Positions 25,239 through 27,819 of a stretch of DNA of 32,197 nt are shown here, one piece after another; the stretch's first letter is position 1, and each line of letters starts with the position of its first letter. The translations under genes were made by a program, and so were the position numbers. Under the pieces are notes generated by a model. It was not told the DNA's origin. It searched no databases and saw only the letters and a program-made list of their open reading frames with translations. The DNA is taken from the NCBI GenBank assembly GCA_018711775.1, contig DVHV01000059.1, forward strand, positions 1-32,197. Direction: 5' to 3'. Source of the stretch: Candidatus Onthocola stercoravium (lineage in GTDB: Bacteria; Bacillota_I; Bacilli_A; RF39; UBA660).

Positions 25239-25796
25239 ATGCCAGCAATCAAAGAACTTAATAAAGACCATATTGTTAAGGTCGCTGTAAAAATGGTAAA
25301 TGATAAAGGATGGGATAGCGTAAATGCTAGAAGTCTTGCCTCGGCCTTAAAAGTCTCTACTAAACCACTTTATCGTATTTATAAAAATATGGATGAAATA
25401 AAAGAAGATATTTATAAAGAAATATCTCATCAATATGATGAATTTATCACTAGCCGAGTTGATAATAAAAAAGCATTAATTACTTTATGTATTGCTTATG
25501 TTGAATTTGCTCAAGAATATAAAAATTTATTTATTAGTTTATTTCTAAGCAACAACTTGAAATGGAAAAGTTTAGAAAACGTTTTAGATGAAAAATGGAA
25601 TCAATCAACAATTATCAATTTAGTTAATAAACATGGTTATAGTTTTGAAGAAGCTAAAAACTTATTTATGAATATGTGGCTATATGCAAATGGCCTAGCA
25701 ACTCTTATTGCAACTAATGAAATAAAAATTGATGAAAAGGAGATTTTAGTTAGACTAGTAAAGACTTATAAAGTTTTAACCCGGAGTGAACAATGA
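25239..25796 (+). CDS. TetR/AcrR-family transcriptional regulator
   Basis: The RBS is GAGGGAGAG. The N-terminal HTH reads IVKVAVKMVNDKGWDSVNARSLASALKVSTKPLYRIYKNMDEI. An extended -10 promoter, TGgTATAAT, lies at 25183-25191. Confidence 0.85.
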   Translation: MPAIKELNKDHIVKVAVKMVNDKGWDSVNARSLASALKVSTKPLYRIYKNMDEIKEDIYKEISHQYDEFITSRVDNKKALITLCIAYVEFAQEYKNLFISLFLSNNLKWKSLENVLDEKWNQSTIINLVNKHGYSFEEAKNLFMNMWLYANGLATLIATNEIKIDEKEILVRLVKTYKVLTRSEQ

Positions 25797-27019
25797 ATCG
25801 AGTAGAAGTAAAAGAAGATAATTTATGTTTAAATCGTATCGAAGAAAAGTGTATTAACTGCGGAATGTGTTTAAAAACATGTAAAAGCATTAATGGTTTT
25901 GAAAATGATTGTATTAACTGCGGGCAATGTATTTTGACTTGCCCAAGTGGTGCTTTAACTCCCAAGTATGATTATCAAAAAGTCTTAAATTTTATAAATG
26001 ACACCGACTATACTGTTGTTGTTTTTACAGCCCCAGCAGTACGTGTTGCTATTGGTGATGCTTTTGGTTTTCCTCCAGGATCATTTTTGGAAGGAAAAAT
26101 GGTTAGTGCTTTAAAACAAATTGGTTTTGATTTTGTTTTTGATACAACTTTTGGTGCTGATTTAACAATTATGGAAGAAGCAAGCGAATTATTAACAAGA
26201 ATTCAAAATAAAAATCTGCCGATGTTTACAAGTTGTTGCCCATCTTGGGTTTTATACACTGAAAAATATCATCCCGAACTTGTTAAAAATTTAAGTACAT
26301 GTAAAAGCCCTATTGCTATGCAAGGGGCAATGATTAAATCATATTTTGCTGAAATGTATGAAATACATAAAGAAAAAATAATTTCCGTTTCCCTAACTCC
26401 ATGCATTTCTAAAAAATATGAAAGAAGTCTATACCCTGATACCGACTATGTAATCACAACTAGTGAACTTATATTAATGATTCAGGAATTAGGAATAGAT
26501 TTTCAAAACTTAGAAGATGCAGCTTTTGATAAATTGTTAGGAAAAGGTTCTGGTGGTGGCCTCATATTTGGTGTATCTGGTGGTGTAATGGAATCCATTT
26601 TAAGAACGGCTTATTACATGGTTAATAAAGAAAAGGCTCCCGAACAATTTTATGAATTTTTAGAAATTCGCGGCGAAAAAGATATAAAAGAAGCCATAGT
26701 TGATATGAAAGAATTTAAGTTGAAAATCGCTGTTGTTAACAAAGTATCAACAATTGAAAAAAATTATGACAAGTTAAAAAATTATGATTTCATTGAAGTT
26801 ATGTCTTGCCCTGGCGGCTGTATCGGCGGCGGCGGTCAACCTTTAGTAGCCATAAAAGATTTGCCTTCGATTCGTCAAGAAAGAATAAGTAGTATGTATC
26901 AAGATGATAAGAACTTAAAAATTAAAGAAAGTTATATGAACCCAGCAATTCGCGATGCCTATGATTGCTATATTAACAAACGAAGTGTCAAACTACATAC
27001 TAACCATAATAAAGAGTGA
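25793..27019 (+). CDS. hydA: [FeFe]-hydrogenase catalytic subunit, short form with two N-terminal [4Fe-4S] ferredoxin motifs
   Basis: There is an ATGA overlap with the TetR stop. The ferredoxin motifs are CINCGMCLKTC and CINCGQCILTCP. The H-cluster motifs are FTSCCPSW (L1), TPCISKKYE (L2, with T in place of the usual M) and EVMSCPGGCIGGGGQP (L3). Confidence 0.9.
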   Translation: MNRVEVKEDNLCLNRIEEKCINCGMCLKTCKSINGFENDCINCGQCILTCPSGALTPKYDYQKVLNFINDTDYTVVVFTAPAVRVAIGDAFGFPPGSFLEGKMVSALKQIGFDFVFDTTFGADLTIMEEASELLTRIQNKNLPMFTSCCPSWVLYTEKYHPELVKNLSTCKSPIAMQGAMIKSYFAEMYEIHKEKIISVSLTPCISKKYERSLYPDTDYVITTSELILMIQELGIDFQNLEDAAFDKLLGKGSGGGLIFGVSGGVMESILRTAYYMVNKEKAPEQFYEFLEIRGEKDIKEAIVDMKEFKLKIAVVNKVSTIEKNYDKLKNYDFIEVMSCPGGCIGGGGQPLVAIKDLPSIRQERISSMYQDDKNLKIKESYMNPAIRDAYDCYINKRSVKLHTNHNKE

Positions 27020-27819
27020 TGCTGATGGAAAAAGGAACAAATTGTGATATAAAGTATTTACTAAATTATATTGGTTTACCTAAAAAGCAAGAAATAGAAA
27101 CTTATATAACGGAATCTCTGTTAAAAGATTATATGAAATTTTTTAATGAAAAAGAAATTGCTAATACTCTAGGTAGTATTGTTTTAGAATACCTAAATAA
27201 ATTAAATCTTGAAGAAGCAACTGACTTACGTAGTTATACGGGATATCAATTTCGCAATATCAATGCAATCCTTAGAAATAATTGGAACTATGAAGTAAAT
27301 GGCAAATTAACTCCAGAATTAAAAGAAGAATATTGTTTATTAGCCGAAAAAATTCAAAGAGCCCTTAATAAAGCCCCAGAATTACCAATTGGTATTAAAG
27401 TATATCGGGGAGTAAGCATCCAAACCTTTCACTCTTATGGTATTTTTTCTTTAGCAGATTTAGTTCACTTAAATAATCAGTTTTTTTATGAAGCGGGATT
27501 TACTAGCACAAGTTTAATAGAAAACCAAAGTTTTTATTATAAAAATCCTTATACTTTAACTGGTAAACCCAACATTTTAATAGAATATTTAATTCCTGAA
27601 CATAGTGATGATGGCATAATCCTTTTAGATGAATCTATTAGTTATTCTGCTAATCAAGCCGAATTCTTAATTAGAGATTCTAGTTTATTTAAAGTTATAG
27701 ATGTAAAAGTTGATGAAACAAAAAATGTTGCTTTTCTAAAAATGCTATTGGTTCCAGAAAGAATATGGAATCTTCAAGATTATGAAAACGAAAGAAATCA
27801 ATCAACAATTCAAAAATAA
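27019..27819 (+). CDS. C3-like mono-ADP-ribosyltransferase (R-S-E class, QxE variant), no signal peptide
   Basis: The start overlaps the hydA stop (GTG 27016, ATG 27019, ATG 27025; the exact start is uncertain). Motifs are LRSYTGYQFRNINAILRNN, VYRGV (Arg), GFTSTSL (STS) and NQAEFLI (QxE). Confidence 0.8.
   Translation: MLMEKGTNCDIKYLLNYIGLPKKQEIETYITESLLKDYMKFFNEKEIANTLGSIVLEYLNKLNLEEATDLRSYTGYQFRNINAILRNNWNYEVNGKLTPELKEEYCLLAEKIQRALNKAPELPIGIKVYRGVSIQTFHSYGIFSLADLVHLNNQFFYEAGFTSTSLIENQSFYYKNPYTLTGKPNILIEYLIPEHSDDGIILLDESISYSANQAEFLIRDSSLFKVIDVKVDETKNVAFLKMLLVPERIWNLQDYENERNQSTIQK

Follow-up and report, generated by a model that had tools for sequence, protein, structure and literature searches.

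An ADP-ribosyltransferase gene with a C3-like fold behind a TetR-[FeFe]-hydrogenase unit of Candidatus Onthocola stercoravium: a real gene arrangement and most probably a positional accident

Does an ADP-ribosyltransferase whose gene lies immediately behind that of an [FeFe]-hydrogenase act on the hydrogenase? The question is raised by a 32,197-nucleotide (nt) stretch of DNA from Candidatus Onthocola stercoravium (contig DVHV01000059.1, positions 1 to 32,197, hereafter the window). Three genes lie there head to tail on the + strand, with stop and start codons that overlap or nearly touch: tetR (25239..25796), for a divergent TetR-family regulator of 185 amino acids (aa); hydA (25793..27019), for a predicted group A [FeFe]-hydrogenase catalytic subunit of 408 aa; and a gene (27025..27819) for a leaderless single-domain mono-ADP-ribosyltransferase of 264 aa with a C3/Certhrax-like fold (hereafter ART). 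The original prediction, made from the sequence alone, was that the three genes are co-translated and that the ART could form a regulatory circuit with the hydrogenase. The analysis reported here indicates that the hydrogenase-ART operon is a real gene arrangement but most probably a positional accident. The cluster is probably composite, consisting of an old tetR-hydA unit and an ART gene inserted in one lineage, whose product would act independently of HydA, and the adjacency to hydA very probably reflects positional hitch-hiking and not a functional pairing.

The ATGA at 25793-25796 is the tetR stop codon overlapping the hydA start, as had been described, and since this tight junction was kept in every relative examined, the overlap is not due to chance. 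The hydA stop codon TGA lies at 27017-27019, and GTG 27016, ATG 27019 and ATG 27025 are candidate starts for the ART. Its frame is open from GTG 27016, overlapping the hydA TGA, and alignments of 26 and then 66 homologues placed the conserved start at ATG 27025 (MEKGTN...), 5 nt past the hydA stop; the three reading frames themselves exist as had been described. In the relatives the hydA-ART gap is 5-9 nt and a GAGG-type Shine-Dalgarno sequence spans the hydA stop. A terminator scan found no intrinsic terminator on the + strand between hydA, the ART gene and the next gene, and Rfam gave no match in the tetR-hydA-ART region, the only matches in the window being a tRNA and an L10 leader elsewhere. 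Of the proposed co-translated operon, the co-directional and near-overlapping arrangement is thus real, and co-transcription and translational coupling are plausible.

The relatives of the locus were compared next to the window. HydA orthologues formed a gradient of 99% to 64% identity, and tetR-hydA, followed by a gene for a 201-aa protein and by rplKAJ, was conserved down to 64% HydA identity. The 201-aa gene (27900..28505, + strand) is the ancestral downstream neighbour of hydA and was present in all relatives (47-74% identity). Identities to the window of TetR, HydA, ART, the 201-aa protein and L11 were 92, 86, 64, 74 and 97% in L001; 92, 83, 59, 72 and 93% in L003; 93, 82, 58, 68 and 96% in L022; and 94, 78, 49, 71 and 91% in L029. 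Three further relatives lack the ART, none being found at these loci by tblastn; here the values for TetR, HydA, the 201-aa protein and L11 were 90, 77, 61 and 89% in L026 and 85, 64, 47 and 84% in L028, and those for the first three were 88, 74 and 49% in L027, where the locus gave no L11 match. L029, L026, L027 and L028 all have a TetR of 184 or 185 aa whose gene overlaps hydA, followed by the 201-aa gene, and in three of the four a gene for a Big/InlK-like surface protein and rplK-rplA-rplJ-rplL come after it; only L029 among them carries the ART.

The hydA-ART linkage was therefore limited to one genus-level subclade (HydA at least 78% identical), in which the whole block is syntenic and which includes six sequence-distinct relatives on 11 contigs (L001-L003, L022/L023, L029, L043/L044 and L045/L046). 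In L026, L027 and L028 the promoter element of the 201-aa gene comes directly after the conserved end of hydA, and in the window it comes just downstream of the ART gene, the ART segment being about 0.8 kb long and having no promoter-like gap of its own. In the window this segment thus lies between the hydA stop and the promoter element. Against L026, L027 and L028, the segment read as a lineage-specific insertion covers 27020..27852 (+ strand) and is made up of the ART gene, the 5-nt spacer in front of it and about 33 nt of flank on its 3' side. In a neighbour-joining tree (distance-based, no bootstrap) the hydA-linked ARTs formed one clade, sister to those linked to an NMT1 ABC transporter, a pattern that fits a single relocation or insertion. 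A separate observation concerns L045 (4626-6200), which has a 98%-identical ART: an IS66-family transposase gene follows the Big-like gene and is followed by a WYL/HTH gene and not by rplK, showing that the block downstream of the cluster is rearranged in some strains.

We propose the following sequence of events. The tetR and hydA genes would form an old and probably auto-regulated unit, marked by a conserved extended -10 promoter, an operator-like block and overlapping codons, and followed by a secreted thioredoxin-like gene with its own conserved promoter. A promoter-less ART gene would have been inserted between the hydA stop and the downstream promoter in a single genus-level lineage, one of uncultured, gut-derived Bacilli with low GC content. 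Its transcription would most likely be due to read-through from the TetR-controlled promoter and its translation to re-initiation 5-9 nt past the hydA stop. With NAD+ and an invariant R/STS/E centre, the ART would then carry out mono-ADP-ribosylation of a narrow target in a way harmless to the producer. The family to which it belongs is made up of stand-alone proteins of about 260 aa, whose genes frequently lie close behind housekeeping genes and never have a partner gene.

Several points weigh against this interpretation. A single loss would account for the distribution of the ART equally well if L026, L027 and L028 form a clade, so that gain and loss are not strictly separated. The relatives were compared as contigs, and the absences of the ART and of a hydrolase hold for the loci sampled. 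The arrangement within the subclade has been stable across deep divergence (ART identity down to 49%), which is compatible with a locally acquired link between the ART and hydA or TetR. Co-transcription, translational coupling and enzyme activity are themselves predictions from sequence, and for the ART the evidence favours neither an endogenous nor an exported role more than weakly.

The circuit originally envisaged, in which the ART would reversibly ADP-ribosylate the co-translated hydrogenase or redox partners, much as DraT modifies nitrogenase, with TetR controlling the whole, has to be weighed at this point. The three genes are tightly packed and probably co-expressed, the arrangement is kept in the six distinct relatives of the subclade although the ART diverged to 49%, and the ART has no signal peptide and is under purifying selection, all of which would agree with such a circuit. 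On the other hand, the orthologous tetR-hydA units of the sister lineages, at 77%, 74% and 64% HydA identity, work without the ART, and no hydrogenase gene lies close to the ART homologues in any of more than 20 other contexts. No reversing ADP-ribosylhydrolase was found among the window reading frames scanned, and the ART belongs to PF03496 and not to the DraT family. A full-text literature search gave nothing joining ADP-ribosyltransferase, hydrogenase and C3-like, and papers on hydrogenase, ADP-ribosylation and DraT dealt, as far as their titles and abstracts tell, with nitrogen fixation, diazotroph genomes, hydrogen production or unrelated annotation. The likeness to the DraT/DraG-nitrogenase system is one of concept alone, an intracellular ART encoded near a metalloenzyme; in contrast to that system there is no DraT Pfam match and no DraG-type hydrolase, and the linkage to the metalloenzyme is not conserved. 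Conservation of the neighbourhood, which the original prediction had proposed to survey, broke down outside the one subclade in which everything is syntenic. A hydrogenase under a dedicated ADP-ribosyltransferase would be a new mode of metalloenzyme regulation, but the comparative evidence argues against it and we regard such a circuit as highly improbable.

The positional reading agrees with the wider distribution of the ART family. One search for homologues gave 73 clusters at 90% identity and another gave 103 representative clusters (E<1e-30), most full-length members being single-domain proteins of about 240-265 aa that match from residue 1. The family is spread over gut and rumen metagenome assemblies, its named members being in Bacilli. 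A scan of one genome per species gave 21 ART loci, all of them in gut-derived metagenome-assembled genomes (Bacilli, Tenericutes, Erysipelotrichaceae, Candidatus Coprovivens and Candidatus Onthousia). When TetR and HydA of the window were searched against these loci by tblastn, they adjoined the ART only in L001-L003, which are syntenic over the whole block; the other 18 loci (33-47% ART identity) had no hydA or tetR within 7-10 kb, and the same was found for further metagenome loci. Outside the hydA-linked subclade no ART lay near a hydrogenase, the homologues occupying more than 20 unrelated chromosomal contexts. At 58% ART identity the hydA context is retained, whereas at 50% an NMT1 transporter is found instead.

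Clustering and Pfam annotation of the neighbours at 22 loci and 11 further loci revealed no recurrent partner gene. The neighbours encode NMT1/ABC transporter, GNAT, YitT, collagen-like, M23 peptidase, MutL and CotF proteins, and also GH3 glycosidase, D,D-carboxypeptidase, P-type ATPase, MnmA, S4, TraG, histidine kinase and DUF1846 proteins. In a distant, N-extended subfamily (L031-L042; 266-327 aa; hosts of 39-46% GC) the neighbours are ROK, NrdR/FtsZ, MscS, RadA, RuvC, FemAB, AddA, acyl-ACP thioesterase and S1 genes, often 0-2 nt from the ART gene or overlapping it. A DNA-repair theme among the neighbours (MutL, AddA, RadA, RuvC) was considered and rejected, as it amounts to three independent contexts of about 20, near chance expectation. 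The members of the N-extended subfamily (P0233, P0254, P0263, P0270, P0277 and others) carry an acidic N-terminal extension of 25-80 residues with a recurring PWxxEGLFDDVxF(A/S)G motif, which is not a signal peptide.

If the ART is not tied to the hydrogenase, its nature has to be sought in the protein itself. It is a member of the PF03496 C2/C3-like mono-ADP-ribosyltransferase (mART) superfamily by profile, motif and fold. It scored 60 bits with the Pfam ADPrib_exo_Tox profile (PF03496; cut-off 23.4, E 2.5e-16), and the R/STS/QxE triad (VYRGV, FTSTSL, NQAEF) and the YTG..F.NIN..LRN region reported earlier were all recovered, the catalytic residues being R128, S161-T162-S163 and Q211-A-E213. 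The mART signature [YFL]R-x(27-60)-[YF]xST[SQT]-x(32-78)-[QE]xE (from PMC7764402) matched residues 127-213. Among 66 homologues R128, S161 and E213 were invariant and T162 and S163 nearly so. With its QxE the window ART is C3-like, but QxE is not fixed as a C3 signature across the family: of 66 members, 49 begin this motif with Q, 9 with E and 4 with L, while V, K, G and R occur once each; QxE and ExE enzymes differ in their acceptor residues (PMC3000352).

An AlphaFold model of the ART built from the 66 homologues had a predicted local distance difference test (pLDDT) score of 91.7 and a predicted template modelling (pTM) score of 0.90. Its best Foldseek matches were C3bot1, Certhrax, C3stau2, C3cer, Vip2, CDTa and Listeria Lmo0066 (E about 1e-12; 7e-13 for C3bot1 and Certhrax), with sequence identities of 16-25% and target-normalised template modelling (TM) scores of about 0.75 for single-domain C3-type chains and 0.82 for Lmo0066. 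There were 146 PDB structure matches at E<=0.001, and among the matches listed 50 of 50 were C2/C3-type ARTs. Searched with the family profile, Certhrax was the best sequence relative with a solved structure (E 3.3e-11, residues 51-225). Two extra N-terminal helices precede the ART core, and the motif LRNNWNYExNG is common to the family; in the model the first 40 or so residues appear as a long additional amphipathic helix with no counterpart in mature C3. That the ART has neither a signal peptide nor a delivery domain was confirmed by hydropathy and by the single-domain 264-aa model: no signal peptide was found, the Kyte-Doolittle(15) maximum in the first 60 residues being 0.61 against 2.59 in the secreted 201-aa neighbour, and none of the 66 family members has a hydrophobic N-terminus.

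These features bear on a second alternative, that the ART is a C3-type exoenzyme directed against a protein of a eukaryotic host or another non-self protein (a small GTPase, actin or vinculin, for example). Lysis, a holin or sporulation would release it in place of a Sec signal, and it would need no immunity gene because its target is absent from the producer. All the closest folds and sequences are secreted toxins (C3bot1, C3stau2, C3cer, Certhrax, Vip2, CDTa, Plx2A). Like the C3 exoenzymes (C3bot1/2, C3lim, C3stau/EDIN, C3cer), which are its best structural matches, the ART is a single domain of similar length with the R/STS/QxE centre, an aromatic residue in turn 1 of a C3-like ADP-ribosylating turn-turn (ARTT) loop (S-Y-S-x-x-Q-x-E) and no immunity gene, none having been seen at any locus. 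It evolves as fast as the neighbouring surface proteins, the switches between Q, E and other residues at the specificity position suggest shifting targets, the named sources are all gut or rumen, and leaderless mARTs predicted to be non-classically secreted are already on record (PMC3000352). However, signal peptides, delivery domains and B components are missing from all of the more than 100 clusters, there is no export route to point to, and the genes are found in housekeeping operons (mutL, addA, radA-ruvC, hydA) and not in virulence islands, phages or plasmids. Compared with the C3 exoenzymes, the ART has 16-21% identity, an amphipathic helix of about 40 residues where the Sec signal peptide would be, the LRNNWNYExNG motif and a Q of QxE that is not fixed in its family, and its gene is chromosomal in a housekeeping operon, not phage- or plasmid-borne. 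Strictly speaking, the lack of a Sec signal peptide sets the ART apart from the C3 exoenzymes. Release as an exoenzyme is rather unlikely.

Rates of substitution were also compared. Between the window and L043, where divergence is unsaturated (synonymous rate, dS, 0.47-0.64), the ratios of non-synonymous to synonymous substitution (dN/dS) were 0.024 (tetR), 0.085 (hydA), 0.177 (ART) and 0.113 (201-aa gene), and deeper pairwise comparisons of the ART gave 0.17-0.36. The low ratios indicate a functional ART gene, kept by purifying selection and evolving 2-4 times faster than hydA, at a rate close to that of the adjacent surface proteins. Positive selection on the ART was considered and rejected, because pairwise values of 0.18-0.36, which are gene-wide, denote purifying selection. 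A foreign origin was likewise not indicated by composition, the GC content of 26.8% being inside the range of its neighbours with no anomaly.

The surroundings of the ART genes also speak to the type of enzyme. Pfam annotation of the neighbours showed no immunity, hydrolase or macrodomain gene beside the ART in about 35 loci, and no gene for a B component or a protective antigen (PA)-like protein was found near it. In the window, the absence of an adjacent antitoxin or ADP-ribosylhydrolase gene noted earlier held when the reading frames were scanned with Pfam: neither beside the ART nor elsewhere in the scanned frames was there a gene of hydrolase, macrodomain or antitoxin-like type. Promiscuous antibacterial ARTs such as Bxa require adjacent immunity proteins (PMC11699363), and the lack of an immunity gene in the 35 or so loci speaks against a promiscuous antibacterial toxin; the target of the ART would be absent from the producer, very specific or only conditionally available. 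Listeria Lmo0066, known with an ARH immunity protein (PDB 8za7), shares the ART fold (8za7_B, E 2.9e-11, TM 0.82), and the toxin-immunity pairs, Lmo0066 and Bacteroides Bxa with Bsi/BAH, likewise come from gut or Firmicute settings. Lmo0066 and Bxa differ from the ART family in their trafficking domains and in the immunity or hydrolase genes beside their own (PMC11699363; title of 8za7). The catalytic domain of Certhrax (Bacillus cereus G9241) resembles the ART in its QxE, and both are without a classical signal peptide, but Certhrax has a PA-binding domain of about 240 residues and needs PA for entry (PMC3000352), whereas the window ART has no domain of this type and no PA-like neighbour. The binary actin toxins (Vip2, iota Ia, CDTa, C2I) differ in having ExE and not QxE, a duplicated N-terminal adaptor domain and not a single domain, and a B component gene. 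The ART is not a binary-toxin A component, a toxin-immunity module (of the T6SS, T7SS, polymorphic-toxin or DarTG-like kind) or a DraT analogue, and its most suitable place is in an uncharacterised leaderless subfamily of a known superfamily.

Another explanation would make the ART an anti-phage or abortive-infection effector that works on its own and ADP-ribosylates a phage protein, or a host protein upon infection only. The ART is leaderless, intracellular, fast-evolving and patchily distributed, genes for recombinases, TraG or a PD-(D/E)XK transposase are found close to some copies, and an AbiE system is found 9 kb upstream in the window. On the other side, PADLOC gave no meaningful match, there is no sensor or partner gene, the gene does not lie in a defence island, and the neighbours of the ARTs are mostly core housekeeping genes; an effector of this kind is improbable. 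The single PADLOC hit, PbeC, was marginal (16.9 bits) and was rejected as a defence assignment. A phage origin suggested by PHROGs was also discarded, the matches being weak and at domain level only and tblastn finding no ART in 50,697 phage records or 72,556 plasmids. In contrast to phage-encoded ARTs (Alt/Mod-like, or of gut prophages), the window ART is flanked by pheST, a P-type ATPase gene and rplKAJ. The fallback of the original prediction, an unrecognised toxin or defence module, may still apply.

IMG/VR yielded one matching contig (L030) among 2.9 million, with the same order and sizes of reading frames as the recombinase-associated island of L005. In both (L005 2178-7608, L030 4890-10306) two reading frames, which cluster with NMT1 substrate-binding-protein genes of other loci and resemble fragments of one such gene, enclose genes for a serine recombinase, an S9-like hydrolase, the ART and a PfkB kinase. 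L030 is classed as viral by IMG/VR. The structure suggests a small integrative island able to carry an ART.

Within the positional reading, the ART may act inside its producer on a specific endogenous target other than the hydrogenase, a proposal to which we give slightly less than an even chance. The slight lean towards an intracellular role arises because the genes are found repeatedly inside housekeeping operons and have no export or delivery features. A stronger form, in which the family would be an intracellular endogenous regulator of anaerobic Firmicutes and the first C3-fold ART with a housekeeping role, would explain the leaderlessness, the missing immunity partner and the position in core operons; we nevertheless hold it to be decidedly unlikely. 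If it were true, insertion behind hydA would join the ART to the TetR/hydA regulon and might allow its recruitment to modify fermentation or redox proteins, possibly the hydrogenase included. What remains in any case is a sizeable C3-fold subfamily in gut and rumen metagenomes that has no export signal, delivery partner or immunity gene. If the ART is intracellular, endogenous ADP-ribosylation would extend to a fold otherwise familiar almost solely from toxins; a released ART would be a commensal-encoded C3-like factor that could act on host cells.

What, then, is the unit behind which the ART gene lies? The assignments originally made to the three proteins agreed with profile searches and structure matches, and that of TetR is the weakest of the three. 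Pfam TetR_N scored 21.8 bits against a cut-off of 24 (E 1.7e-4), NCBIfam also gave TetR matches, and the PDB sequence and profile matches were exclusively TetR-family regulators. The predicted model has ten helices (single-sequence, low confidence); its best 50 Foldseek matches were all TetR-family proteins aligned over the full length, with low TM scores in keeping with a poor single-sequence model. TetR is the most conserved protein of the block (dN/dS 0.02-0.05), being 85-94% identical in relatives in which the hydrogenase encoded downstream is 64-86% identical.

A consensus scan located a promoter-like site for tetR-hydA at 25163..25191 (+ strand), with a -35 element TTTTCA, a 17-nt spacer and an extended -10 element TGgTATAAT (25183-25191). 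The TGnTATAAT extended -10 was invariant in 8 lineages, with or without the ART. It is followed directly by the 17-nt block AGAAACATAAGTTACCA (25192..25208, + strand), which contains an imperfect palindrome (GAAAC-N4-GTTAC) and was nearly invariant across 8 aligned upstream regions while the surrounding DNA was not conserved. The block occurs once, no further copy being found in the window, and we regard it as a candidate auto-operator of TetR.

The middle reading frame contains the H-cluster motifs TSCCP, TPCxxKxxE and MSCPGGCxxGGGQP and two ferredoxin CxxCxxCxxxC motifs, in agreement with the earlier description. Pfam Fe_hyd_lg_C matched at 1.2e-81, together with Fer4 and Fe_hyd_SSU, and NCBIfam TIGR02512 (group A) at 410.7 bits against a cut-off of 405.95. 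The architecture comprises a compact N-terminal 2x[4Fe-4S] domain, the H-domain and a small-subunit-like C-terminus. On the H-cluster motifs L1-L3 and TIGR02512, HydA is predicted to be a group A [FeFe]-hydrogenase.

The promoter-like element of the 201-aa gene, at 27853..27881 (+ strand) in the same kind of scan, consists of TTTACA, a 17-nt spacer and TATAAT, followed by GGAGG, and the element cTTTACAaataacgacaaaaaaagTATAAT...GGAGG precedes the gene in every lineage whether the ART is present or not. The product has a signal peptide (N-terminal Kyte-Doolittle(15) maximum 2.59), a CGHC thioredoxin/protein disulphide isomerase-like domain and a C-terminal membrane anchor with a weak LPXTG-anchor match; a profile of its orthologues matched the disulphide isomerase 3fk8 (E 0.008). 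The hydrogenase gene is thus consistently paired with a gene for an extracytoplasmic thiol-oxidoreductase that bears its own conserved promoter-like element. In L026 and L027 (6170-6310 in both) hydA is without its usual stop codon and continues for 18-19 extra codons through the promoter-like element, giving an extended HydA of 426-427 aa whose gene overlaps the start of the 201-aa gene.

The window as a whole is chromosomal and carries pheST, rplKAJ, the L10 leader and a gene for a P-type ATPase. At 16662-18153 there are two overlapping reading frames, of which the second (286 aa) encodes an AbiEii nucleotidyltransferase toxin (PF08843, 4.6e-28) and the first (212 aa), which has no Pfam match, presumably its AbiEi partner. 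The pair is missing from the syntenic stretch of L029 and L026, indicating a strain-variable toxin-antitoxin/abortive-infection (TA/Abi) insertion. L11, encoded by rplK (30071-30742), is 223 aa long as the longest reading frame from GTG 30071; its Pfam domains stop at residue 161 and are followed by an acidic, Glu/Ala-rich C-terminal tail of about 60 residues, and the L11 of relatives is also long (199-218 aa as called genes). A cell-envelope-type cluster downstream of an ABC exporter gene (2177-5589) encodes a holin-like protein (PF16079) and proteins with two SH3 domains, a bacterial PH domain and two LysM domains.

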